The notes under the pieces were generated by a model that did not search any database, was not told the origin of the DNA, and saw nothing but the letters and a program-made list of their open reading frames with translations. From Hydrurus foetidus (Eukaryota): DNA of 64,000 bases. Shown here piece by piece: positions 1 to 64,000 of the stretch. The stretch is taken from positions 1 through 64,000 of the forward strand of contig UYFQ01000609.1 of NCBI GenBank assembly GCA_900617105.1. The letters run 5' to 3'. Each line of letters opens with the position of its first letter. Within the stretch, counting starts at the first letter, position 1. A program made the translations under genes and the position numbers.

Positions 1-2693
1 AAGGGATTGGGAATGTTCTAAAAATAGAACAGCCGTTCGTCTCCAATCAGTTCGAAAAGAACGAGAGATCAAACGTGCCATCGATGAGATGTTGAACTCG
101 GGAGTCATCGAGGAATCGAATGCGGTTTATTATAGCCATCCTGTCATAGTACAGAGAACAGCTGACTTGTTCAGATTTTGCATTGACTACCGAAATCTGA
201 ACAAATGCACACAGGCTTCCAGCTGGCCGCTTCCGAACATTCGAGCTCTTTTGAGAGAATCGGCCATCAACAGCCAGTCATATTCGGAGTTATGGATTTA
301 ACTTCTGGTTACCATCAGGCACCTATGGATCAAGGATCCAAGGTCCTGACTGCGTTCATTTGTTATTGCGGTGTATACCAATTCACCAGACTCCCCTTCG
401 GTCCTCGGAGAGCCCCCTCTTACTTCCAAGAGATGATGGCGACTATTGTCCTTAATGGACTCATCTACATTTCTTGTGAGATGTACTTAGACGATTGTAT
501 CGTTTTTGCACGAGGCCAGGACGAGTTCCTGGAGAGACTAGAACGAGTCTTTCGACGTTTTCGCTGTTTTGGTTTACTGCTTAAAGCAAAGAAATGTAGA
601 TTTGGGATGTCTCAGATCGATTATGTTGGCAGACAGATCTCTTCTCAGGGCATATCAATGTCAAAAGAGAAGATTGAATCTGTCCTAAATTTCCCAAAAC
701 CCATGACACTTACTTCTTTACGAAGTCTGTTGGGCTTGGCGAATTACTTCAGGAATTTTGTTCCTTTTCATTCCGACATCGTTGCACCCCTTCAGAGGAT
801 GATTGACCCTAAAGGGAGGAAAAAGTCAGCCCTTCAGTGGACTACGGAAGCAGATAAGGCTTTTGTTCTCATAAGACAAGCCATATCCCGCTGTCCGCTG
901 CTACACTTCTTAGACGAAGTGTCACCCATCGAGTTATACACCGATGCCTCTGACTACGGAGTAGGTGGAGTATTATTCCAAGTAACTAATTCTGTCAAGA
1001 ATCCAATCTCATTTGTGAGTAAGTCGCTTAGCGCAACACAAGTTAAATGGTCTACCATTCAAAAGGAGGCCTATGCAATATATTTTTGCTGTAAACAACT
1101 TGACTCTCTTATAAGAGATAGAAAATTTATCATCCATACTGATCATAAGAACTTAACCTTCTTAGGTCAAGATCCATCAGCAATGGTAAATAGATGGTCG
1201 ATGGCTCTCCAAGAGCTAGACTACACTGTGTCCTATATAAGTGGACCCAAGAACTTCATTGCCGATGCACTGTCTCGGTTATGTCCTAACTTAACACAGT
1301 TGGTGATTCTTGACCCACCTACTAGAGTGGAGGAAATTGATGTTCATATATCAGCTCTACATGAAGTTGCACCTGTTACCGAGTTACAACTCGAAGCTAT
1401 AGAGATGTGCCATAATGCCATGGTGGGACATGGAGGCATTGCTCGTACCCTCGATAAACTGTCAAGTATAGATGAGGAATGGCTCGACATGACATCCCAT
1501 GTTAGAGACTTCATCCGCAATTGCGCATGTTGCCAAAAAATGAGTGTGATCAAAATCCCTGTTCACATTCATAAATACACAACGTCTACTTATAGACCGT
1601 TTGACACAGTCAACATCGACTATATTGGTCCGTATCCGGATAATGGATATGTTTTGGTAATGATTTGTTCATTCACAAGATGGACTGAGCTTTACTGGTG
1701 TGTTAACAACACTGCACAATGTGCATGTGAATGCCTTCTACAATTCTTCGGTAGATTTGGTGCACCAAGCATGATCCGATCGGATCGTGGATCTCATTTC
1801 ATGAATGAAATCATACGTGAGTTCTTACTCCGTACAGGGACCCCCACAACTTAACCTTGGCATACTCAAAGCAGGAGAATGCTATAGTGGAAAGAGTTAA
1901 TAAGGAAGTTAATCGACACTTACGTGCTTTTACATTCCACTCTACAAATCTCGAAGCCTACAGGCTTTGCCTGCCTTTCGTGCAGAGAATTATCAACAGT
2001 TCCGTACATTCAAGTACGGGAGCTTCACCAGCTAGCTTGCTGTTTGGAAACCAACTAAACCTTGATAGAGGTATTCTTGTTAGGTTTCCAGATCAAACTC
2101 AAGTTCCGACTCGTTCGTCGAAGGTGATTGCAGACATGCTGCTCATCCAAACGCAACTCAACGATTTAGCGATAAATAAGTTGAAGACAACAGATATTAA
2201 CCGTGTAGCCGTTAATACAGAACCTAGAACTATTTTTCCAATAGGTTCGTACGTTCTCACTCTCAACCCTAGAGGTGCTGAGACTAGATTGCACAGTATG
2301 TGGCTGGGCCCATTTCTTGTTGTAAGCTATGATAAAAGTGAATACACTATTAAAAATCTTATCACGAAGAAAAATCGTGATGTTCATGCAAGTCAGTTGA
2401 AACCGTTTAGGTTCAACCCAACTTCCCAATCACCGACTGACACAGCTCGTCGCGACTACATGGAATTTTTTATTGAAGAGATCGTTTCCCACGTTGGAAA
2501 TAAAAAGAAACCTTCTACAATGAAATTTTATGTTAAATGGTTGAACTACGATTCAAACCATAATTCATGGGAACCATGGAAGTCCATGCGCGCCACAGAT
2601 CAACTTCATACGTATCTGCGCAATAACAACATGTTGCACGTTATTCCAAAAGAATTTCGAAATATGACTCCCAATACAAGGGAAGAACCGTGA
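1..2693 (+). pseudogene. Gypsy pol (RT, RNase H, integrase, chromodomain) with two apparent 1-nt frameshifts
   Basis: RT motifs FCIDYRNLN, DLTSGYHQ, LPFG and YLDD; RNase H TDAS...KEAYA...TDH...ADALSR; integrase H..H/CxxC, IDYIGP, SDRGSHF and ENAIVERVN; chromodomain IEEIVSH...FYVKWLNY..SWEP. Frame breaks at ~250 (T run) and ~1845 (C run) look like homopolymer deletions. Confidence 0.9.
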
Positions 2694-2912
2694 ATGATAT
2701 CTTTTGAAGATTACTCCTAAATATTTTTTTACCTCAATTACTTGAGTTTTTTTTTACGGAGGTTAGTCAGTACAAATCTGACATAATCATTCACGAGTAC
2801 ACACACTCGACACACAACCCCCCCTTCTTTTTTCTTTCTTTTCACATATTGTATTGTGTTTTATACATATTTCTGAAAGAAAATAAAAAATGTCATCTAA
2901 TTTTTGGAAATG

Positions 2913-3057
2913 TTGCCCTTCATTATGAAGCGCTAGTTTAGTTACTCTTCCTTCTGAAGCGTTAGTTTAGATCATAAAAATCATTTCTAAAAAAATCATT
3001 TTCACTCTTCCTTAAGAAGCGTTAGTTTACTTGCCCTTCCTAAAAGCGCTAGCCTAC
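2913..3057 (+). repeat. four imperfect ~29-30 bp repeats in the Gypsy 3' UTR
   Basis: TTGCCCTTCATTATGAAGCGCTAGTTTAG / TTACTCTTCCTTCTGAAGCGTTAGTTTAG / TTCACTCTTCCTTAAGAAGCGTTAGTTTAC / TTGCCCTTCCTAAAAGCGCTAGCCTAC. Confidence 0.75.
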
Positions 3058-3109
3058 TTTATTCATTCTCAAAATTGATTTCAATTTTAGTTAAAATAAG
3101 TGGGGGTAG

Positions 3110-3296
3110 TGTAGCCGTCTGGGGCCCTCGGGACCTTGGACCCCATTCCGTCTGTTTGGGTTCATACCCAAACACACTGTAGACTTCTAGGTAGACTCCT
3201 AGCACCCTAGTAGGATGTTTCCCTGCTCATATATAGTTCAACAACCCCTTGTAAGCCTAACCCAACACCTCCTAGCCCTCTAGCCTAGTTCCTTCA
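3110..3296 (+). repeat. 3' LTR of the Gypsy element (~187 bp)
   Basis: Starts TGTAG directly after the PPT, contains ATATATA at ~3229 and ends CTTCA at 3296, where Copia-derived coding sequence resumes. The end point is inferred because the second LTR is not in the window. Confidence 0.65.
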
Positions 3297-6152
3297 GGGC
3301 CACACTCACCGCTATCGTACTGCTGATCCCGGTAGTCACCCCCGTTTTCAACCGGTTCACCCCCACTGTCCGGTCTCTCGTCTATCGCTTCCTGATCCTC
3401 ATCTCCGTCTAGCGGTAATATGGATGGGTCTACACCGTCGTTCACCGTAGGCTCGATCGTGTCTGGTAGATCCCCCCTAGAGTCTCCGTCCTGTTTGTAC
3501 GACAACGGTCGCTCGTACAGCTCACCTCTACCTTTCACACGCCCGTCTGCTAGCGCAAGTTCGTTAAGCCTCTTGATTACCGATTCTGGCATCGGTAATA
3601 TTCTAAATTGGTCCCTATTCACCAGTCGTCCAGCACTCAGAGAGAGCATTCTCACGGACCCTGTACGGTTGCCAAGCGGGAGCATCACCACGCAGTCTTC
3701 TGTGCGACTCCCTAGTCCTGCATCTGTGTTTGGTACGGTACACTGCGCGTAGTCGCCAAACGAACAACGAAAATCTCGCTTACCATCTGGCTTCCTTCCT
3801 ATAAACGCCTCGCGGGGACTTGGGCCGTATCCCCGTTAACCGGCCGGTTCGTAGTTCAGCCTGGATATACAGTACAGTACACAAAGCTGCTATACCCACG
3901 GTCGACAGATTGAACGGCAGGTGGTACGCTACGTGAGCCCGTACCCTTTCTTTAATAATCTTATTCTTCTCTCGATTCTAGCCACGTGACCCCCAGCTCC
4001 GCTCACGTCGACTTCAACTCCGAGTTTTCCCAACTCGTCGACAAGGCTGGTGACCGCCCCCTCTCCGTCGCTCATGATGATGGACGTCCGAAAGTTTTGA
4101 GACGCGAGGACACCGAGGAAATGGTTGATGCCGATCTTGACTTGCCCTGCTGTCCTCGCCGACTTCTTTAGATCAGCTGTGTTAAGACTGTATGCGATAG
4201 TTAGTCCTAACGGAGTAGCCACCCCAACTAGAATAGCTAATTTCTCTATAAACATAATGTCAATCGATAACACCTGATCCCGTTGTAAGATTTTTGTGCT
4301 CACGGTTATATCGGGGACGGCTGTAGCTCTCTTCGTTGTTTTACCCTTCAGCGATGCGATGTCCTTCCCCCATATCGCGTCTGCGATCTGGAAGTCTCTT
4401 GCTGTCACGTCAAAGTTGCTCCCGCTATTGACGATTGACATCGCCTGTTCTACCGTCGGGAATCCCATTCTGGCCAGTAGCTCGCGGGCACGCCTGCCCT
4501 GCTCTATTTCGCGTTTTGTAAATGCCTTTAAATTCTCGACTACTGTCGTGACAAGTGCGCTCCCGCACTCCATTTCTCTCCAATCACAGGAATAGAATCT
4601 TCCCTCGCTCCCAACGACACGCTTTCTTCCGAAGCGATAGATCCTCGTGCTTCCCTTCGGCTGGAGAGTGAAGCAGTCGCTCAGGTGGTCGTACCGAATC
4701 GACGCCCCTGAGTCGACTTGGGAAGCAAATGACAGAATATTTGCTGAGGCTGAACCGCTGTAGTACACCGTCCCAAATTCGCCGAACTCTCCTTCCCGAT
4801 CGACTGACACTCCCGCTCCCTGTTGAATTCCGCTCACTTTTATTGTTCTCTCGGACTTTCTAACGTCGGTAAGCAAATCAGGATTGCTGAATATATTTAG
4901 TGACGCCTCGTTGTCTAGTAGCACGTCAAATCGCGAGAAGCAGCACACTTCGTCTGCAGCCACAAGTGCTACTCCCCACTCGCTCGATTCACCTTCGTAC
5001 TCCTCGTCCGACTCCCCGTCGTGACGTGGACTTTTTCCGATGACGATTTCTTTTGTGGGCAATCCCTCGCGTAGTGCCCTTTAGTTTCACACTTGTAACA
5101 CTCCACATCCGCTATTGATTTCTTACTGCCCCCTCCGGCTTTCCCCGCTTTCTTCTCGGCCGGGTCCTTGGTCATAGTGACATGTGCACCTTCGGCAACG
5201 TACGCCGCGTTCGCACCCGCAGGTGTCAGAGTGGGTGTATGGACGGGCACTCGGTCATTCCACTCTGACGAGATGTGGAATGCTAGGGCGAGCGTGGTGG
5301 GGAACGCACCCGGTTTCCGCCGTAGCGCGTCGTGCTTCATATCGTCCAACATGACCTTGTACCGACGGGTGTCGAGTTTCCCTAGGAAGTCCAATGCTCG
5401 CTTTGACTCCGACACTGCGGCGATCCCCACGGCTGCGTTCGCTGTTACCTGTTCATCAAATCTGTTCTTGAAGGTGACGATATGTTCCCTCTCACCTTGC
5501 CTCATTGACCCGTACTTACTCTCCTGTTCGTGTTGATTGTACTCTTGCAGTGACTCGTCTCCACCGTACATGTGTGTGAGGTGGGTTCTCCTGATGAGTG
5601 TCCACAGCAGGACACAGTCCAGCGTAAGGTAAGCAGTCTGAACTCCTCTTCCTCCTTGACCCTACTCTGTTAGTCCATCGACATACGCTTCCACATCATG
5701 GGGTACATTGTACGTTCGTTCTCACGTTGCGTTTTGACATCTCTCTTCCTCTGAATATAATCATCCTCCTTAAACTTCGCTCTCGAGCGTTCCGACGCTT
5801 TTCGTCTTCTCTCGTTTCTCGCCAGTCTGGCGGCGATACGAGCAGGTTTCGCAGCAGCGTACGCTACGGCCTCTGGGTCAGGTGCTGGCTGTGGTTGATC
5901 GTCGCCCCCGTCGTCGTCGTCCTCATCCGAGCTGGAGCTCTCCGACGACGAATCCGCAGGGTAATCCCTGTATGAAATTCTCGGGAGCTCATATCTCACG
6001 TTGGTGGAGAAGAACATGCCCACTATCCCGTATAGCTCGGTTACTACCGTCTGCATGTGTTCTCTCCATCTTATGATGTTGTTGTGTTTGCCGTATTGAA
6101 GCGTACACTCCTCTGTACTTTTGAAAGCTTCTGCAACGCGTTTGGGAGGCAT
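3297..6152 (-). pseudogene. Copia copy 1 gag-pol (gag, zinc knuckle, protease, integrase), multiply frameshifted
   Basis: ATG at 6152. ORF pieces 5670-6173, 4969-5571, 3929-5062 and 3272-3691 align in order with copy 2 gag-pol. Confidence 0.85.
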
Positions 6153-6176
6153 TGGAATGCCTGCTCCAGTCAATTA

Positions 6177-6508
6177 TGTTGACGGATCTTTGGTTCAGCC
6201 GACACGTACGAGGGTGAGTGTACAGCGGTTGAAGAACGCTCGGTCAAGGCTCGTGAAATAAGCTTTGGGTTGTCAGTAATCACTTGTTAATTGACTGTGC
6301 TTCATCCCTGCTGAAGTCCCCGAGTCCCTTTCAACGCAACAACAAAAGACATCCTACACTACTTCTTGAAGTACCGAGCCGAAGCACGGGTCCACACATC
6401 GTCGTCACGCATGCACGCACACACACACACACACACTAATCCGTACGTCCGTACGAATGCATAAGTACACAGATTGTGTTCGTGTCATAAACTAAGATAT
6501 CTCCAACA
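6177..6508 (-). repeat. 5' LTR of Copia copy 1 (332 bp)
   Basis: Minus strand runs TGTTGGAGATATC...CGTCAACA. Homologous to the copy 2 LTR, including the (GT)n tract and GACTCGGGG..CTTCAGCAG.GATGAAGCACAGTC. Confidence 0.88.
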
Positions 6509-6516
6509 GTACCTAC

Positions 6517-6589
6517 TGTTGGATATATCTGAGTTCATGACACGAACACATTATGTGTACTTATGCATTCGTACAGCGGCGTACGGATT

Positions 6590-6623
<34 letters not shown>

Positions 6624-6853
6624 TGTGTGCGTTACAAGGATGTATGGACCTGAAAAGTTTCTGTACTTCAAGTGTAGTGTAGAGTTTGAATTTACCATCG
6701 CATTAAAACTGACTCGGGGCTTCAGCAGAGATGAAGCACAGTCGAATTAACAAGTGTTTATCGATACTCTAAATCCCATTTCACGAGTCTTGGCAAGTGA
6801 GCCAGTGTTCCGAAGGTCCACGTTCCTCCCTGGAATCGAAAGGTTCTCCAACA
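6517..6853 (+). repeat. 5' LTR of Copia copy 2 (337 bp)
   Basis: By eye, identical to 11768-12100 except (GT)14 versus (GT)12. Confidence 0.96.
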
Positions 6854-6865
6854 TAATTCGACTGT
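6854..6865 (+). promoter_or_regulatory. non-tRNA primer-binding site complementary to LTR 6738-6749 (candidate self-priming PBS)
   Basis: TAATTCGACTGT is the exact reverse complement of ACAGTCGAATTA in the LTR. There is no TGG to match a tRNA CCA end. Confidence 0.7.
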
Positions 6866-6877
6866 CGAGGCATTGAT

Positions 6878-9800
6878 ATGCCACCTAAACGCGCCGTTGA
6901 AGCTGTGAGAAGCACAGAGGAATGCATCCTACAAATCGGCAAATATAACAACATCATCAAATGGCGCGAGAGTATGCAAACGATAGTCACCGAGCTATAT
7001 GGCATAGTCGGGATGTTCTTCACTACGGATGTGAGATATGAACTCCCGCGCACCGCGATCAAATATCCTGATGCATCGGCATCGGAAGAATCAACATCCG
7101 AATCGGATGATGAAGGCGAGGCCGCTAGACCGCTAGTACCGCCTGAAGTACGTGCCGCGCACGCGGCGGGCAAAGCAGCGAGAGACGCGGCAAGAGAAAC
7201 CCGAAACGAGCGGCGCCGAAAAAGCAATGATAGATCGAGAGCAAAATATAAAGAGGAGGATTACCTCCAGAGAAAACGCGACCTCAAAGCTCAGAAGGAG
7301 CATGAGCGCACCATCTTCCCTATGATGTGGAAGCGCATGTCGACGGACTCACAGAGTCGTGTCAAGGAAGAAGACGGGTATCGTACAGCCTACCTCACAC
7401 TGGACTGTGTCTTACTATGGACGCTCATCAGAAGAACACACCTCACCCACATGTTCGGCGATACGGACCCTATGAAGGAAATCAACCAGCACGAACAGGA
7501 GAGTAAGTACGGGATGATGAGACAGGGGGAAAGGGAACTGATCACAACCTTCAAAGCCAGATTTGACGAGCAGGTCCTAGCGAATGATGCAGTTGGAGTG
7601 GCCAGGATCACAGACACCCTTCGTGCACTTGACTTCATCGGGAAGCTCGACCCGAAGCGATACAGACGCATGATGACAGAGATGAGGAACGACGCACTCC
7701 GACAGAAACCGGATGCTTACCCCAAGACACTCGCCGCGGCGTTCAGGATCTCATCCCAGTGGCGGAGCAACGGCAGTTCAGCGATGGTACCCACACCCCC
7801 AGGGGCATCGGCATTCGTCACGGAGGAAGTCCACGTCACCGCATAGAAGGACACGGAGAAGCGAGCCGGGAAGACCGGAGGGGTCAGGAAGAAGTCACTA
7901 ACCGACGTCGACTGCTATGCCTGCGATGGAAAGGGACACTATGCGAGGAATTGCCCCAACAAGAAACCGTCATCAGAAAAAGTCCACGTATCGAAGGCTG
8001 AACCTGACAGTGACGATGAGAGTGAGAGAGATGATTGGGGAGTTGCACTTGTGACAGCGAGCGAAGTCTGTCTGTTCTCACAGTACGACGTCCTACTCGA
8101 CAATGAAGCGTCTCTAAACATATTCAGCAATAAAGACTTACTCACTGGGATCAGACAAGCTGAGAAGACAATTAAAGTGAGCGGAATACAATCTGGAGAA
8201 GGAGTCACCGTGGATCGCGAAGGCGAGTTCGGAGAGTTCGGAACTGTTTTCTACAGTGAAGACGCATCAGCTAACATTCTATCATTCGCCTCTCAGGTAG
8301 ATGCTGGAGCGAACGTTAGATACGACTACGTGAGCGACTGCTTCACCTTACGTCCTAAGGGGAGCAACAACGTCTATCGATTCGGGAGAAAAACAGTTCC
8401 CGGTAGTGAAGGAAGATTTTACTCTTGCGATTGGAGAAACGTCGAAGCCGAGTCAGCGATGGTTGCCACGGTGGAGCAGAACTCACGAGCATTCACGAGG
8501 CGCGAGATAGACAGAGCGAGATCGGCTCGCGAGCTCATGGCTAGGATGGGGTTTCCATCGGTAGCAATGGCGATGTCGATAGTCAACACTGGAAGCAACT
8601 TCGACATATCAGCGAGAGACTTCCGAGTCGCAGAATCAATTTGGGGCAGAGACATGGCATCGATAAAGGGGAAATCGACCAAGCGAGCTACTATGGCTGC
8701 AGATATATCAATCAAAGCTAAAATCGTCCAGAAGGATCAGGTGCTCTCTATCGACATTATGTTTATAGACAAAATCGCTATACTAATCGGCGTGGCTACT
8801 CCACTAGGGCTAACTATAGCATATAGCCTCAACAATGTGGTGCTCAAGAAGTCCAGCAGAGCAGCGGAGCATGTGAGGAAGGGAATCGCTCACTTCCTTG
8901 GTGTGCTTGGATCACAAGGCTTCAAGACATCCGTGATCATGAGTGACGGCGAGGGCGCAGTAGTCACACTTGTGGATGAGCTTGGGAAATTGGGAGTGGA
9001 CATTGACATCAGCGGAGCAGGTGGTCACGTAGCGAGAATTGAAAGGAGAATTCGAGTCATCAAGGAAAGACTGAGAGCTCACGTATCGTACCACCTGCCT
9101 TTTACATTATCGAGCGTGGGTGTTGTTATGTGCGTACTGTACGTAGTGTCGAGACTGAACTACGAGCCGTACGGTGAGAGAGAATACGGACCGAGTCCTA
9201 GAGAAGCATTCATTGGTAGAAAGCCTGATGGCAAAAGAGACTTTAGATGTGCGTTTGGAGATTACGTGCAGTGTACAGTACCTAATACAGATTCAACTCT
9301 AAAACCACGCACAGAAGACTGTGCCGTTATGCTTCCAGTTGGAAACCGTACGGGAACAGTGAGAATGCTGTCACTAGCGACAGGGAAGCTAGTCAATCGT
9401 GATCAATTTACTATACTACCGATGCCGGAGTCAGTGATTAAGAGAATGAATGCACTAGCGCTAGCAGACGGTAGGGTGAAGGGCAAGAGTGACCTCGAGA
9501 AATCTAACAGCGCATACGACCGCATCAGCGACAACTCAGACGACCTACCTGAGACCATGGAAACGATGATCAACGAGGGTGTAGACTCGTCAAGTGACTT
9601 GCTGGACGCAAACTACAATCCTGAGCTGACATACGAAGAGTCAGTCAAGCAAGCGGATGTAGCTCAACAAGATGAACAGCCCGCAGAAGAGACTGTATAC
9701 GTGGAAGATATGATACCAACAGCGATACCTGCAGCCAGAGTGCGTGCGGAACCAAGAGTAGATGACATCGAGGACATGATGAACATCTTCAGGGAACTGG

Positions 9801-11702
9801 CAGTAGGAGCACCTCAAACTGCATCACACGAAGTAGCCGATGAGCAGGGGGTACCGGAAGATTACGGAGAGAACGGTGCAGTAGATACGGGTGTACTCGA
9901 GGAATCAGTCGTCCCAGCTGCGACACCACCTACATACGCAGCGTACGGACACAGGGTGGTGTCCAGAGTGGATCTTATGGACATGTTTAGATCAGACAAG
10001 CACAGTATGGCAATGCTGACACGAAACTACGACTCAGCAGGAGGTGACTGGGGGGAGTTCGTACTTAATATATCAGTAAACGACGCATTGAGAACGAGAG
10101 GCAAAGATGCCGAGACCGTAATACAGAAAGAACTGAGTCAGATGATTGGGAAGAAGGTACAGACGCCGGTAGACATACGAGGATTATCGTACGAAGAGAA
10201 GCGTTGGATCATTCGATCGAGCATGTTTCTAAAAGAGAAGTTCCTAGCAAGTGGAGAGTTTGAGAAGCTGAAGGCTAGACTAGTAGCGGGTGGTGACCAA
10301 CAGGACAAGACACTATATGATGACCTATCAGCACCAACTGTAGGGACCAGCTCGGTGTTCACCCTGCTGTGCATCGCGGCACACGAGGGACGGAAAGTCG
10401 CCGTGATCGACATTAGTGGGGCATATTTAAATGGGGACATGAATACAGGACTCACAGTGCATATGGACTAGACAAGAACATGACAGGTATGATGGTGAAG
10501 CTGTCACCAGGTTATGCGAAATACACGGATGCGCGTGGGTGCGTGGTGGTACGGTTGGATAAGGCCCTATACGGATGCGTAGAGTCAGCAGCCCTATGGT
10601 ACGAGAACCTCAGAGAGAGCATGAAGAAACTCGGGTATACTCCAAACCTGATAGACATATGCGTGTTCAACAAGACGGGCGAAAAAGGAGTGCAGTGTAC
10701 AATCGCAGTACATATGGACGATTCAATGATCACTAGCACTGACTCAGATATGATAGAGTTGGCCTGATAGAGCAGGCCTGACTCGTAGCAGGCCTGATCG
10801 AGAGATATGGGGACATCGTCCGCAAGGACGGACCGACAGTCAACTACCTGGGGATGGTATTCGACTTGACCGCGAGAGGTGTTGCTCGGGTGACTATGAC
10901 TGGGTATGTCAACGACATGCTAAGGGAAGTGGGGACATGCAAGGGTGCACGCACTCCCGCCACTGACGGGCTGTTCGACGTCAGACCCGATGCACTTACG
11001 GTGAGCGAAGGACTGAGGGTGATGTTTCACCGGCATGTAGCGAAGATGCTATATCTAGCAAAGCGTGCTAGACCAGACTGCCTGACTGCAGTTGCTTTCC
11101 TCGCCACAAGGGTCACGAAATGCACAGTGGACGACCTAGCCAAGCTAGATCGTCTCATGAGATACGTGTGGGCGACGAGAGATAGAGGTATAGTGTTCGC
11201 TCCTGGTGAGAAGGGGATCGTGGTAAGCGTGCTGATCGACGCAGCGTATGGAGTGCACGCGGATGGGAGGTCACACACGGGAAGCTGCATTGTGATTGGT
11301 GATAGCGGAGCAGTGCATTGTAAGTCTGCGAAGCAGCAGATCGTCACAAAGTCGAGTACGGAAGCGGAGCTAGTAGCACTGTCAGACTCAGCGAATCAGG
11401 CGTTACACCTGAGGAATTTCATCATAGCCCAAGGACACCCGTGCGAGCCTGTGACCATCCACCAAGACAACATGTCTTGCATGGCCCTCATCGACCGAGG
11501 GCGGTCCGCGGCGGAGCGTACGAGGCACATCTCTATCAAATACTTCTGGTTGAAAGAGAGGGTGGATACAGGGGAAGCTAGGGTGAAGCACCTAGGTACG
11601 AAGAACATGTATGCCAACATGTTGACAAAGCCGCTCCAAGGAGCTCAGTTCAAGGAAGAAAGAAAGGGGGTCACTGGGTGGCCGGATAACGAGTTAGCTT
11701 AG
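6878..11702 (+). pseudogene. Copia copy 2 gag-pol polyprotein with in-frame TAG (7844-7846), frameshift (~10465) and short duplication/frameshift (~10760-10800)
   Basis: Zinc knuckle CYACDGKGHYARNC; protease LLDNEAS; integrase SIDIMF..SDGEG..ERRIR; RT KARLVAGG, DISGAYL, LDKALYG and HMDD; RNase H DAAYG..SHTG..SSTEAE..QDN..ANMLTKPL. Confidence 0.92.
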
Positions 11703-11767
11703 ATTATTATTTCATAGCGAATGCTTGATAGACAAACTGCGTGCAAATGAGTTGTGACATGAGGGTG

Positions 11768-55250: not shown

Positions 55251-58200
55251 TTATTTGGAATATCCGACGAGAGTAGGCAAGGCTCCCAGCGCCTAAAGTT
55301 GACAGGAAGATCAGTTAAGGTTGACAAGCAAGCTTGTGTGTGTTTTCAAGATTGAGGATGCCGGGAGAGTTCGATAATGTATAGTGTCCAGAATGAAGTC
55401 GCCGAATCGCGTCACATCACATTACATCATATGTTGTAGGCAGTAAGATAGCGCACTTTCAGTAAGTGAAATAATGTGGAAAAAGGCCGAAACGAAACTT
55501 TTGACGGAATGAAGAAGGTAAAAGTACGTCACGCATAATTGCTCACCTCGTTTGCCGATCGGAGCAATGGCGACAGCAGCAGCTGAGGTGCAGCAGTGTA
55601 GAGGAAGCGATGCACATGGTAGAAGAAGTTGGCAGCGATGTGGTTGTGCGCGAATGGAGATGAGATAAACCGTTCACAACAATGAATTCCTCCTTAGTGA
55701 CGATGGTGTACAATCCATCTGCTAGGATGGTCCCTACTGTGGAGACCGTCTCCTCCCCTGTCACCGTCATGACGCAGTCGTTCACTGCCACCTGCGAGGC
55801 GTACTTAAGTGGCAGCGGTGAGGAGGTGCCGCATGCACCTGCTAGAAGGACGTGACTCTTGGTCATTTTGATGTCTCGACCGCTAGTGGTGGTGATGTGG
55901 ATGAATACAGCAGTGACCTTGTTGGCACTGTGAGGCACGAAGACCACTTCAGAGAAAGATATCCTGCCCGCAGCGTCAGCTGATAGCACGCGATCACCAG
56001 CCATGATTTGAGAGATTTGACGGTCCTCACCACATTCCAGTCTGACCGTCTCGGATCCAGCAAAACAATCAGCAGCTGAAGTTCCACTTGACGCTGGCAC
56101 AGCTTTAGGTAGCGGTGTAGCAGAAATTAGTTGAACCTTCACGCCAATTGCCGAGCAGACATTCAAATTGAAATCTAAGGACACTCCAGTCCCAGTACAG
56201 TCCGGTTGAAGGAAAGTGGTCGCTGTGCCAGAAGACTCTGTTGTGATAGACGATCATTGATGATTATGGGATATAACATAAAGTAGGTGAGTAGTAGCGA
56301 TTTAGACCAATTTTGTTTTGAGTTCTTCACCTTTGACAGCTGTAATTGATTTTGTCTCCGTGATGCATGTGTTCAAAGAGGCGTATTCTGCCATGTAGAT
56401 GGGGGCTTGGCAGGTTGGATCAGCATTCCTGTAGAAGCTGTGTTAAAGAGGTGGAAGGAAGTGCAGTGCGGTGGGTTGAGTATTAGTATCTCGTCTTCAT
56501 GATTTTTGCGGTGGCCATATTGACACATACTTTTTCTCTTGATTTTGAGTATGATGGTGCATTGCAGGGTCAACGCAGAACAATAGAATGACATGTCAAT
56601 TCAGAAAGGTAATGTCAGGTGTGCGAGAGAAAGGCGACAAGCTCCGACCTGCGACTGATAATATCCACAACGGAAGTAGGGACTCCAGTGGCACTTAGCG
56701 ATGATAAGGATGACTCAGTACAACTGCTCTTATAGTTGACGAGACTGGTGGGTGTTACCACAGTTTTGCACGTGGAGTCGGAGTAGTACGTAGTTGAGAA
56801 GGTAGAGTCGGTGGCCATGTACGTGACATATTTGCCATCTGGTTCTTTGTCGCAGGAGTGGAGCAGTAGCGCTTTTGCATACACTATAGAGGTGCAAGCC
56901 GCGTCACTGTACCGCGCCTTAACGAAGTAGTGCAGTGACGCGATCGGAGAAGCTGGTGGTACCGCAGAAGGGGCTGATGGAGCGAGTGATGGCTCCGTAG
57001 TAACCGCTGTTGGTGACGAGATCGGAGAAGATGGTGGTACCGCGGAAGGGGCTGATGGAGCGAGTGATGGCTCCGTAGTAACTGCTGTCGGTGATGCGAT
57101 CGGAGATGATGGTGGTAACGCAGAAGGGGCTGATGGAGCGAGTGATGGCTTGGTAGTAATCACTGTCGGTGATGAGATCGGAGAAGATGGTGGTACCGCA
57201 GAAGGGGCTGATGGAGCGAGTGATGGCTTGGTAGTAATCACTGTAGGTGATGAGATCGGAGATGATGGTGGTACCGCGGAAGGGGCTGATGGAGCGAGTG
57301 ATGGCTCCGTAGTAACCGCTGTCGGTGATGCGATCGGAGAAGGTGGCAATGCCATAGATGGTGCTAATGATGGGAAAGAAATTGTTGTACCCGCGACTGT
57401 TTGATACTTTACGCCTCCACTTAAACAAGCACCAATGGTGTAGTTGAAGACATTGTATCTGCCGGTGCAGTTAAACGAGGGACCATCCTTTGAGGAGTAT
57501 ATGTATTTCTTCAGAAAAACAGTCGACCCTAAAATTGAAGGTGAAACAAGTTAGTGACTGATGACTGATGAGACTTGGCATCGATCATGGAATTCGTATC
57601 TGCTTTTGTAGCGAACAGCGGAAACCAGCACGTCATCGTTATTTGCATAGCAACACACCCACGATCATTTTTATCTTTCATTTACTTTCTGGTATGATTG
57701 TCAAGGATATTCACCTGATATTTTAAGCACCGACTTTTCATAGCAAGTGTCGAGTGGAAGATATTCTGTCTTGTACACAGTCGTGGAGCATGTTGCATCC
57801 TTCTTGTTGTAGTAGCTACATGAGATGTGGAGAGGATAGGTGGGTCAGTCACTTACATGCTAGGAACAGTGGCTGCTTTTGTGCCACCCGACAGCATGAA
57901 GTGAGAAGAAGATATGATAGTGAGTGGTCAATGGCTGCGACGATAGTGCAGCGTGGGATTATGAGATGCAGATGTGCGGTGTAGGATAAGAGGATCAGAG
58001 ACGGTGAGAAGACATGGATATGGATATGGAGTTGGTAATGGAAATGGTAGGCTGGCTGACCTGGCCATGACGCACGAAAGACTGATGATGTGCACTGACC
58101 TGATACTCGCCATGGTGAGTGACGAAGGAGGAACACCATTCGAATTGACTGTAATCAGCTAGAAGAAACAGCGAACAGTCCAAAGACATTATGTCACATG

Positions 58201-61200
58201 TGCCCGTGTAGTCTAAGTAGATAGGTCCAAGCGTCGATACCGCGGTCGTGCACAACGAGTCGGAGTATTGTTGAGCGACAGTGGATGCAGTAGCGGTGTA
58301 CTTCACGAAATCACCTACACCTTCCAGGTGATAGTTGCAAGAGTTCAATGGATAAGACACAGCCGATGTAATCGTGGTGCATCTATCATCGCTGTATTGA
58401 GCTCTGACGAAGTATCCGCTCAGTTGCAACGTGAGTGCTGACGAGAAGGCGGTGGGGGCGAGTGACGGGACGAGACTTGCAGTGCCCGGGACAATTTGAT
58501 ACTTCACGCCACCACTGGAGCAAGCATCTATAGTTGCAGTTTTCATCGTGTATTCACCGCTGCAGTCACTAGGGATGCTTGAGTATTGTAGATGCGAGAT
58601 CGTCGATCCTGAAAAAGATTTTTTTTAGTTTTTAGATTTGTTGAACGTAATGTTGCTCGTTACACACTTACACATCTCACACGTGTCAGGTAACTGACAA
58701 GACATAGGAGGCTGCACTCACACACTCACTGATGCATAAGTTGCTGCACTCACACGCGTCCACACACACACTTGCACATAATCATCACTGGTGATTTGTT
58801 CACGACTGTCAGCCACCGTCACATTCTTCTCTATCTTTCGAAATGACTCTCACCTGACAATCTGAGCGTTGACATCGAGGCTGTTTCGCAGGTGTCGAGT
58901 GGTAGATACTCTGTCTTGTACACAGTCGTGGAGCATGTCGCATCCTTCTTGTTGTAGTAGCTATACGAGATGTGGATAGGATAGGTGGGTCAGTCACTTA
59001 CATGCTAGGAACAGTGGCTGCTTTTGTGCCACCCGACAGCATGAAGTGAGAAGAAGATATGGTAGGGAGTGGTATATGGCTGCGACGATAGTGTAGCGTG
59101 GGATTACACTGCACGATGTGATGTAGGATCAAAGAGGATCAGAGACACTGAGAATACATGGATATGGATATGGATATGGAGTTGGTAATGGAAATGGTAG
59201 GCTGGCTGGCCGGCCATGACGCACGAAAGACTGATGGTGGGCACTGACCTGATACTCGCCATGGGAAGTGATGAAGGAGGAACACCATTCGAGTTGACTG
59301 AAATCAGTGTCGTAGCCAAAGAATAGCCAGTGTTGACTGATTTGCATGTGCCCGTGAAGTCGGTGTAGGTAGGTCCAAGTGTAGATACTGCGGTAGTGCA
59401 CGACGCGTCGGAGTATTCCGTTCGAGCGATGGCATATGCAGTGGCGGTGTATTTCACATATCCACTCACCCCTAACGTACTCGTATAATCGTTGCAGGAG
59501 TTCAATGGATAAGACACAGCCGATTTAAATCGGCACATCTAGGTCCTGTATTGAGCTCTGACGAAGTATCCGCTCAGTTGCAACGTGAGTGCCAACGAGA
59601 AGGCGGTGGGGGCGAGTGACGGGACAAAACTTGCAGTGCCCGGGACAATTTGATACTTCACGCCACCACTGGAGCAAGCACCAACGGTGTAAGTTTCACT
59701 TGTGTATTCACCGGTGCAGCAATGTCAAAAGGAGTAAATGTCAATTTCGAGAGAGTCGATCCTGCAAAAATCAAAAACCAAAAAGTAATTAGATACTTCA
59801 AACTTCAAACTGAAATCGTGTCATACATACGTTGAGACACGATCGTAATACAATATTCGAACGTGCAGCCTCACACTTAAACACGCACACATACGCTCCT
59901 CTCGAAACAGACACACACCACGACCCATTAGAACTGAAGAAAAGAATGTCAATTGCATGATACGTAAACAGAAAACTTGTTTGTGACAGAAGACAAAAGG
60001 ACTTCTAGCATGATGCAATGACACACATGTGGGAACAAGTGCTTACCCTCAGTGATGCATTACTTGTTCCACACATATACAGCGTAACACACACACACAC
60101 ACACACTGGGATAACGGAGGAGATAAAGACAAGATACCGCTGTACTTAGACACACAATACCACTCGCAATCACATACACATTCGTCAAAATTGACAAGTA
60201 CTACATATCGATGAGCACACTTGCATTACTGATGATACAATTGCAATACTGATGATAAATTATCCAGGCCTTTCTTTCCATGTGATATCAAATAACGCCT
60301 ACCAGAAACTCTGTACGCCACACGAGAAAAGAATTAGGAGATTCACAACTGTTGAGTGTTTTGTATTCTGTCTTGTACACAGTCGTGGAGCATGTCGCAT
60401 CCTTCTTGTTGTAGTAGCTACACGAGATGTGGAGAGGATAGGTGGGTCAGTCACTTACATGCTAGGAACAGTGGCTGCTTTTGTGCCACCCGACAGCATG
60501 AAGTGAGAAGAAGATATGATAGTGAGTGATCAATGGCTGCGACGATAGTGCAGCGTGGGATTACAGATAAGGCAGATAGTGCGGTGTAGGATAAAGAGGA
60601 TCAGAGACACTGAGAATACATGGATATGAAATTGGTAATGGAATGGTAGGCTGGCTGGCCGGCCATGACGCACGAAAGACTGATGATGAGCACTAACCTG
60701 ATACTCGCCATGGTGAAGTGACGAAGGAGGAATTCCATTCGAGTTGACTGTACAGCGTAGTGTAGAAGCCATACGTGTAAGAGATGAGTCAACGCATGTG
60801 CCGTGTAGTCGAGAAGGTAGGTCCAAGTGTCGATACCGCGGTCATGCACAACGAGTCGGAGTATTCCGTTCGAGCGATGGTGTATGCAGTGGCGGTGTAT
60901 TTCACGTATCCACTCTCCCCTGACTGACTTTCATACTCGTTGCAAGAGTTCAATGGATAAGACACAGCCGATGTAATCGTGGTGCATTTATCGTCGCTGT
61001 ATTGAGCTCTGACGAAGTATCCGCTCAGTTGCAACGTGAGTGCTAACGAGAAGGCAGTGGGGGCGAGTGACGGGACAAGACTTGCACTGCCCGGGACAAT
61101 TTGATACTTCACGCCACCACTGGAGCAAGCACCAAAAGTGTAGGTTTCAATGGTGTACTCCCTGGTGCATAAGAAGTCACGAGGCGAGTACGTCAATTTC

Positions 61201-61680
61201 GACAGAGTCAATCCTGGATAAACCAAAAATCAAAAGTGGTCAGATAATTCAAACATGGATCGCGACATTTGTACATCAAGATGCACAGACATGGAACAGT
61301 CAGTGCTGTACCACTTCCATCATGTGCGACACAATTGCGCTACAATACACAAAGAAGCAGCCTCACGCGCACAGAGGCTCATACGCTTTTCTCGAGACAA
61401 ACACATACTACAACCAATTAGGACAGACGTAAAGAATATCAACCACGTCATTTATTGTGTAGGGGACGGAAGAGAAAACGATTTCTGACAGGATGCAATG
61501 TCTCACATGATCGCACACACGCACGCACTTTCATTGATGCTTCATTCGTTGCACACATACACCGCCAAACACATACATGCACGCACTCTCATTGATGCTT
61601 CATTCGTTGCACACAGATAGACACACAGACAGACAGACACAGACAGACAGACAGACACACACACCGCCAAACACATACAT

Positions 61681-61715
<35 letters not shown>

Positions 61716-64000
61716 AGATAACATACTAGATATGGGAAGAGTCACTCACTCACTCGCTCAGTATAGTAAACACATGCACGCACTCACGCGCTCACTCTCA
61801 GACACACACAATAATCCATTACTCGAAATTGGCATACACGACGTCAAGACAGAAGACAAGAGTACTACATATCGATGACGCACACTTGCATTACTGATGA
61901 TACAATTTAGAATTTAGATGCTAACATACACTCTGGCCTTTCTTTCCATGTGATATCACATAATGCTTACCGGAAGTTCTAAACGTTTCATGATGCAAGG
62001 AATCATCGAAGTAGCAAGTGTTGAGTGGCAGATATTCTGTCTTGTACACAGTCGTGGAGCATGTCGCATCCTCCTTGTTGTGGTAGCTACATGAGATGTG
62101 GATAGGATAGGTGGGTCAGTCACTTACATGCTAGGAGCAGTGGCTGCTTTTGTGCCACCCGACAGCATGAAGTGAGAAGAAGATATGGTAGGGAGTGGTA
62201 TATGGCTGCGACGATAGTGTAGCGTGGGATTACACTGCACGATGTGATGTAGGACCAAAGAGGATCAGAGACACTGAGAATACATGGATATGAAATTGGT
62301 AATGGAAATGGTAGGCTGGCTGGCCGGCCATGACGCACGAAAGACTGATGATGGGCACTGACCTGATACTCGCCATGGGAAGTGATGAAGGAGGAACACC
62401 ATTCGAGTTGACTACAGCTAGTTTCGTCGTTCCGTAGATGTAACCATCATCGCATGTGCCCGTGTAGTCTAAGTAAGTAGATCCAAGCGTCGATACCGCG
62501 GTCATGCACAACGAGTCGGAGTATTCCGTACGAGCGATGGTGTATGGAGTGGCGGTGTATTTCACGTATCGACTCTCCCCTGACTGACTTTCATACTCGT
62601 TGCAAGAGTTCAATGGATAAGACACAGCCGATGTAATCGTGGTGCATTTATCGTCGCTGTATTGAGCTCTGACGAAGTATCCGCTCAGTTGCAACGTGAG
62701 TGCTAACGAGAAGGCAGTGGGGGCGAGTGACGGGACAAGACTTGCAGTGCCCGGAACAATTTGATACTTCACGCCACCACTGGAGCAAGCACCAAAAGTG
62801 TAGGTTTCAATGGTGTACTCCCTGGTGCATAAGAAGTCACGAGGCGAGTACGTCAATTTCGACAGAGTCGATCCTGGATAAACCAAAAATCAAAAGTGGT
62901 CAGATAATTCAAACATGGATCGCGACATTTGTACATCAAGATGCACAGACATGGAACAGTCAGTGCTGTACCACTTCCATCATTTGCGACACGATTGCGC
63001 TACAATACACAAAGAAGCAGCCTCACGCGCACAGAGGCTCATACGCTTTTCTCGAGACAAACATAAACAACAACGTAAGCATAGAACTCGTAGGCGACAG
63101 GAGGCAAAACGATTTCTGACAGGATGCAATGACGCACATGATCGAGCAAATATGCGCGCACTCTCAGTGATGCTTAATTTGTTGCATACATATATCGCAT
63201 CACTTACACACACACACATGCAGAATATGACAGGCAGAATATAGGAGGCTGCACTTTTTCATACACTCACAAATACAAATAATAATCGAGACAGACATAT
63301 GCTACGATACTCATCAAAGGTGACAACCATAGATTGCATTTCTAATGAACATAAACATCTATATAATTGACTTGACAGACCTCCTAACTTTAGCATCGCA
63401 CTTCCATAGCAAGTGTTGAGTGGCAGATATTCTGTCTTGTACACAGTCGTGGAGCATGTCGCATCCTCCTTGTTGTAGTAGCTACATGAGATGTGCATAG
63501 GATAGGTGGGTCAGTCACTTACATGCTAGGAACAGTGGCTGCTTTTGTGCCACCCGACAGCATGAAGTGAGAAGAAGATATGGTAGGGAGTGGTATATGG
63601 CTGCGACGATAGTGTAGCGTGGGATTACACTGCACGATGTGATGTAGGACCAAAGAGGATCAGAGACACTGAGAATACATGGATATGGAGTTGGTAATGG
63701 AAATGGTAGGCTGGCTGGCCGGCCATGACGCACGAAAGACTGATGATGGGCACTGACCTGATACTCGCCATGGGAAGTGACGAAGGAGGAACACCATTCG
63801 AGTTGACTGAAGATATACTAGACGATTTCCTAGTTTCAGAATCACCAACGCATGTGCCCGTGTAGTCTAAGTAAGTAGATCCAAGCGTCGATACCGCGTT
63901 CATGCACAACGAGTCGGAGTACATTGTTGTAGCAATTGCATATGCAGTAGCGGTGTACTTCACGAAATAACCTACACTTTCCGGGTGATAGTTGCAAGAG
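55251..64000 (-). CDS. large Hog-type (Hedgehog/Hint) protein: tandem Cys-rich two-exon modules, mucin-like stalk, C-terminal Hint + SRR-like domain; 5' end beyond window; several apparent frameshifts
   Basis: Exons in transcription order: B5 (>64000-63758), A5 63481-63381, B4 62873-62363, A4 62086-61971, B3 61213-60698, A3 60417-60303, B2 59761-59249, A2 58960-58854, B1 58608-58100, A1 57815-57715, B0 57528-56649, A0 56437-56331, Hint exon 56237-55547, putative last exon 55292-55251. All have GT-AG borders with alternating phase 2/1. Confidence 0.8.
55547..56067 (-). other. Hint (Hedgehog/intein) autoprocessing domain plus sterol-recognition-like tail
   Basis: AD|CFAGSETV.L..G..I..I..GDRVLS..G...FSEVV..H..F..I.T..G..I.MT.SH..A..V..DCV..V..V..G.Y..VT....IVVNG, with catalytic Cys at 56067-56065 and TxxH = TKSH. 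After a 1-nt shift at ~55667 it reads SPFAHNHIAANFFYHVHR. Confidence 0.88.
56940..57350 (-). repeat. 78-bp tandem repeat (~5 copies) encoding a mucin-like P/S/T/A stalk
   Basis: 26-aa unit PPSSPISSPTAVTTEPSLAPSAPSAV. Confidence 0.93.
57715..64000 (-). repeat. tandem array of at least five ~1.1-1.7 kb exonA-intron-exonB cassettes
   Basis: Recurrent anchors, e.g. GTACACAGTCGTGGAGCATG at ~57773, 58918, 60375, 62044 and 63438, and near-identical ~280-bp B-to-A introns. Confidence 0.93.

Follow-up and report, generated by a model that had tools for sequence, protein, structure and literature searches.

Pairing of the primer-binding site with the element's own LTR points to self-primed reverse transcription in a protist Copia clade

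The window, that is the whole 64,000-nt stretch of DNA analyzed here, carries two related Ty1/Copia elements that lie head to head with 8 nt between them (6509-6516). Copy 2 (6517-12100, forward strand) is delimited by paired LTRs and by a 5-bp target-site duplication (TSD), CCTAC, on both flanks. Its 5' LTR (337 nt, TG...CA, 6517..6853, forward strand) is a direct repeat of the 3' LTR (333 nt, 11768..12100, forward strand), the sole difference being 4 nt of a GT repeat, and a purine-rich tract was found just before the 3' LTR. The coding region (6878..11702, forward strand) has the order gag-PR-IN-RT-RH, with a CCHC knuckle in gag and with RVT_2 matches on two pieces located 3' of the integrase-like region. 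The integrase was recognised from D/D/E columns that are conserved in alignments, Pfam rve giving no match. The TG...CA LTRs with a TSD, together with this gene order and a Copia-type RT, place copy 2 in Ty1/Copia. Its coding region is disrupted by an in-frame stop (7844-7846) and by breaks near 10460 and 10770. The LTRs are thus near-identical despite three coding breaks, one of them accompanied by a short duplication in tandem near 10760-10800; copy 2 likely moved in trans, or else the breaks are assembly errors.

Copy 1 lies on the reverse strand and is about 70% identical to copy 2. Its 5' LTR (332 nt, 6177..6508, reverse strand) is about 77% identical to that of copy 2 over 276 nt, and its frameshifted gag-PR-IN region (3300..6152, reverse strand) extends no further than the integrase, where it either ends or was interrupted; no second LTR of copy 1 was detected within the window. 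Beside this end lies an element of Ty3/gypsy type (187-3300) that has a chromodomain as well as RT, RNase H and integrase; its likely 3' LTR (from ~3110) directly adjoins the point where copy 1 ends, and its PBS falls outside the window. This chromovirus-type element may have interrupted copy 1. Copy 2 is inserted in the orientation opposite to copy 1, at a distance of 8 nt from its LTR, and the target sites of the two copies overlap or come close to doing so; this single instance (n=1) hints at an insertion hotspot. Both LTRs include a GT microsatellite in U3 (6403-6445 and 6584-6635), and the GT repeats and inverted LTR starts form a long hairpin, for which the score of a miRNA model was below the gathering level.

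The PBS of each copy was compared to its own LTR. In copy 2, the PBS TAATTCGACTGT (6854-6865, forward strand) abuts the terminal CA of the LTR and is the perfect complement of a 12-nt site within that LTR (6738..6749, forward strand; core 6739-6749), the predicted self-primer at the putative 5' end of the RNA. In copy 1, the PBS TAATTGACTG (6176-6167, reverse strand) directly follows the LTR (6508-6177) and is the perfect complement of a predicted 10-nt self-primer (6297-6288, reverse strand). All 12 and all 10 pairs proposed by the sequence-only reading were recovered at exactly the coordinates it gave, and neither PBS begins with TGG, as it had also noted. Global alignment of LTR plus leader placed the extra G of the copy 2 LTR site and the extra C of its PBS at homologous places, which bears out the mirrored indel described in that reading. 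When the LTRs were dinucleotide-shuffled, a match of the observed length at offset 0 arose in 2 of 5000 shuffles for copy 1 and in none of 5000 for copy 2; with offsets up to 5 allowed, the counts were 5/5000 and 0/5000. Arbitrary window positions reached the observed match length in 21 (copy 1) and 14 (copy 2) of 9072 cases. The copy 2 helix was predicted in all 18 folded fragments, with pair probabilities of 0.69-1.0.

Relatives were collected by protein similarity. The gag search yielded 113 homologues of 36-92% identity from metagenomes or assemblies, and an integrase profile retrieved 4,410 representatives (E≤1e-10, 50% clustering). When a mixed alignment of integrases was used for scanning, 276 matches were confirmed; the best 78 of these, all metagenomic loci with integrases 28-43% identical, were used after closing contigs at a terminal overlap where one existed. 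In thirty of these loci no gag start preceded by upstream DNA could be recognised, and a further three offered less than 95 nt, leaving 45 that were scored. Clustering at 75% DNA identity and a requirement for at least 200 nt of upstream DNA resulted in 34 representatives, including the two window copies, which were chosen by length and not by score. The nearest family (gag 36-92% identical) is without DNA loci among those retrieved, and the covariation described below rests entirely on more distant relatives. No relatives were detected when the gag alignment was searched against metagenome and viral contigs or the integrase against viral and genome contigs, and a 16-letter LTR motif gave 61 matches in viral contigs, none of which was LTR-like beyond 20 nt.

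The covariation of PBS and LTR site that the two copies had suggested was found to extend to related Copia elements: with the window copies excluded, 24 of the 32 families that could be judged have a match of at least 9 nt to their own LTR. In the strict test, the longest perfect match directly after a CA no more than 100 nt from the gag ATG was sought in the element's own upstream DNA. By this approach, matches of at least 9, 10 and 12 nt were detected in 26, 22 and 17 of the 34 representatives, respectively, the CA chosen in three positives being the start of the PBS itself. By contrast, the cross-element control, in which each PBS was matched to the upstream DNA of a different element, reached these lengths in 22, 10 and 3 of 1122 pairs, with the three longest matches all between sister families, and a similar test inside integrase coding DNA reached 9 nt or more in 1 of 1244 cases. 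Of the eight representatives that failed the strict test, six show pairing of 10-16 nt when alterations of the LTR end or long leaders are admitted, with 11, 10, 16 and 10 nt paired behind altered LTR ends (L065, L067, L068 and L077, respectively) and 14 nt behind the long leaders of L131 and L134. The site of L070 is missing from its contig and present in its sister L074, L138 has no recognisable LTR end, and in L076 a direct repeat places the LTR end exactly before the PBS. Elements with pairing occur on all branches sampled in a quick integrase tree that was built with no outgroup or named references and that holds no DNA locus of the window's nearest family.

The boundaries of the pairing were also consistent across the clade. 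In 17 of 25 cases the pairing does not go past the LTR end; it goes one base past it in eight and two bases past it in none, and the LTR site begins at CA in 20 of 26 cases (background 17%) and at YCA in 15 of 26 (background 8%). Predicted primers range from 9 to 16 nt. In L136 the presumed initiator A has 3 further paired nt upstream of it, and among sisters (L133/L136 and L083/L091/L094) the reach of the pairing at the 5' end of the site differs by up to 4 nt, a pattern that PBS copying from RNAs with slightly shifted starts would be expected to produce. As a separate observation, each of the gag homologues P0004, P0005, P0026 and P0027 has been annotated with an upstream extension translated through the PBS; the residues there are compatible with a conserved PBS end and, for P0005, with another 11-nt variant.

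The start of the LTR site was examined as a candidate RNA start. Oomycete genes use an initiator of the form YCAYTYY, and oomycete and mammalian initiators are of CA type with the start usually at A (PMC3599244); the CA or YCA start of the clade sites resembles this oomycete initiator, and the window's own sites begin with GCA and ACA, thus with CA and not with YCA. A GACTCGRGG-like motif (6710..6719, forward strand in copy 2) is present in both copies 28-29 nt upstream of C6739 or its equivalent, and consensus strings from the loose ends of divergent contigs show it at an unchanged spacing; these contigs were among those from six public runs that were aligned to the stretch. These loose ends join the window at 6735-6737 with the motif kept 28 nt upstream (29 in copy 1), while the letters between the motif and the junction differ in the divergent contigs. 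The motif is a possible core-promoter element, and its spacing and the loose-end junctions fit a promoter and an RNA start near 6738-6740. A hairpin at 6719-6737 was considered as an essential part and rejected, as it occurs in both window copies but is absent from the divergent contigs.

The same contigs were informative for the indel. A one-base deletion at the LTR site (6744) was seen in all four runs of one contig comparison, and hence both indel states are common. Among the contigs listed, the three readable types that span both sites each carry both extra bases or neither: two divergent copy-2-like types have all of their gaps in U5 and keep both, and one copy-1-like contig, with 22 substitutions and no gap, has neither. 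One loose end shows a PBS variant that ends after 6864, which would place the start of the conserved pairing at C6739. No substitution fell within the four sites among 40 of 306 rows, with about 1.6 expected, a difference that is not significant; a second substitution table is blank at both sites, but it apparently omits places at stretch ends and provides no evidence of conservation.

Across the clade, the PBS pairs with the element's own LTR, the pairing starts exactly at the LTR end and the two arms covary. Based on this clade-wide, element-specific pairing and the initiator-like CA, we think it likely that a large protist Copia clade with diatom-type Pol primes reverse transcription by the first 10-12 bases of its own RNA instead of by a tRNA. 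In copy 2, the RNA would start at 6738-6740 and its 5' end would fold back to the PBS with some 104 nt of R-U5 in the loop. The RNase H of the element may then cut after A6749, by analogy with Tf1, to free a 3'-OH that RT would extend into U5. During replication of LTR elements, copying of the primer regenerates the PBS. Plus-strand synthesis on a self-primer would likewise remake the PBS and write any change of the LTR site into it, such that the mirrored indel of copy 2 could be the product of a single event.

To our knowledge, self-priming has been demonstrated only in Tf1. In this element, the RNA's initial 11 bases anneal to the PBS and RNase H makes its cut between bases 11 and 12 (PMC7175516), and two accessory duplexes are needed in addition, forming a three-duplex 'pretzel' (PMC10085805). 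Like Tf1 and Tf2 of Schizosaccharomyces pombe (the Tf1/sushi group), the elements described here have a PBS after the CA of the LTR that complements an LTR site at the predicted RNA 5' end over about 11 nt (PMC7175516). Unlike Tf1/sushi elements, which are Ty3/gypsy chromoviruses of RT-RH-IN order, they have Copia order, RVT_2 and no chromodomain, and they fall outside that group. They also differ from Tf1 in the spread of primer length (9-16 nt across the clade) and in that self-priming is read from their sequence. Accessory stems scored above shuffles (p≤0.05) in none of 25 cases on the U5 side and in 1 of 21 on the leader side, a test that short helices would escape. The likeness to Tf1 put forward in the sequence-only reading stands for the PBS complementary to the element's own LTR; full likeness is not supported, no accessory 'pretzel' stems having been detected.

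A structural role of the pairing has to be weighed against self-priming. The helix could close the 5' UTR for packaging, dimerisation or a translation switch, with priming by another molecule such as a processed small RNA or the 5' end of a second packaged RNA; we regard this as unlikely. The lack of detectable stems of the kind required by Tf1 would suit such a role, as would the many clade PBSs that are A/T-rich and partly palindromic and a copy 1 helix that is not always the predicted fold (pair probability ~0.8-0.99 in 4 of 15 folds and ≤0.05 in 11 of 15, fragment ends making a difference). However, the 3' arm has its start exactly at the position of the PBS and goes no further than the LTR end, neither of which pure structure would require; no other PBS is present, and an initiator-like CA opens the 5' arm.

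Priming by a host tRNA or tRNA half, with the LTR match being secondary, appears very improbable. Whole or half tRNAs serve most Copia lineages (PMC6317226), but a TGG start is lacking here, including after an ACA in all 47 scored leaders (0/47). The PBS letters are highly variable across the clade (12 of 25 start with TAAT), and the PBS varies by family yet fits each element's own LTR; a one-base indel in mid-PBS would moreover be incompatible with a single tRNA. A tRNA search of the window detected no tRNA, and Rfam detected no tRNA-like or other family at 6000-7100 at the gathering level. Chance, or a one-off functionless local inverted duplication, is scarcely credible and is largely refuted. 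In its favor, a 10-nt match occurs at 21 of 9072 random window positions; against it stand the fixed position, the mirrored indel and the pairing in 24 of 32 relatives vs 2% of cross pairs.

Self-priming by the RNA 5' end, the reading favored here, had been presented in the sequence-only reading as unexpected for Copia, and this part did not hold: a signature of this kind has already led to a self-priming proposal for Copia, in plant TAR elements (PMC6317226). Neumann et al. 2019 predicted it for 89% of 203 TAR Copia elements, with Houba and Osr-1 cited, by a signature of at least 10 bp whose start lies 0-5 bp beyond the LTR; Fourf is listed under TAR (PMC6317226). The window copies show this signature, with 10 and 12 bp at offset 0 (PMC6317226). 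Unlike plant TAR, they reside in a non-plant host, have no Pfam rve match and have diatom-dominated nearest Atlas clusters, and the clade is likely separate from and independent of plant TAR, as judged from these sequence features. Similar to the diatom CoDi elements (Maumus et al. 2009, PMC2806351), they have a diatom-type integrase and RT-RH, a length of 5-5.6 kb and short TG...CA LTRs, with the diatom-type Pol call resting on Atlas look-alikes of 2-4 taxon records each and not on named CoDi families. Unlike CoDi, their host is probably not a diatom. A freshwater stramenopile resembling chrysophytes is the probable host, on the weak indication that Ochromonadaceae sp. (61%) is the one organism with a name among the top 120 matches of a host gene. 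The accessible main text of the CoDi paper contains no discussion of primer sites (PMC2806351). The fungal GalEa elements (Donnart et al.) are likewise Copia elements without a tRNA PBS and have a Conserved Hairpin Site, no LTR complement being found according to the accessible text (PMC5445492); their pairing partner is downstream of the LTR, whereas here it is in the LTR (PMC5445492).

No published report of self-priming was found for this clade, in a literature that mostly did not cover subscription papers. We consider it an evenly balanced proposition that in this widespread protist Copia clade (>4,000 proteins at 50% clustering) tRNA-free self-priming evolved independently of Tf1/sushi and TAR, in a minimal form with a single helix, no pretzel and a PBS rewritten from the RNA's own 5' end in each cycle. 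Should a large Copia clade indeed self-prime, the trait would have emerged or survived on several branches of LTR elements, with consequences for the view of tRNA priming as the ancestral state, and these elements would be independent of host tRNAs. It would also show whether a Copia RNase H cuts an RNA duplex without the accessory stems of Tf1, for which the natural range of 9-16 nt primers offers ready test cases, and would explain why PBS-based LTR finders can miss such elements.

Distant from the Copia copies, positions 56900-64000 of the window hold four to five tandem repeats of ~0.8-1.4 kb that are 85-93% alike and that encode cysteine-rich, secreted-looking segments, with a Pro/Ser/Thr-rich repeat adjoining. 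Near these repeats is an ORF (55543-56253) that we take to be Hint-like.
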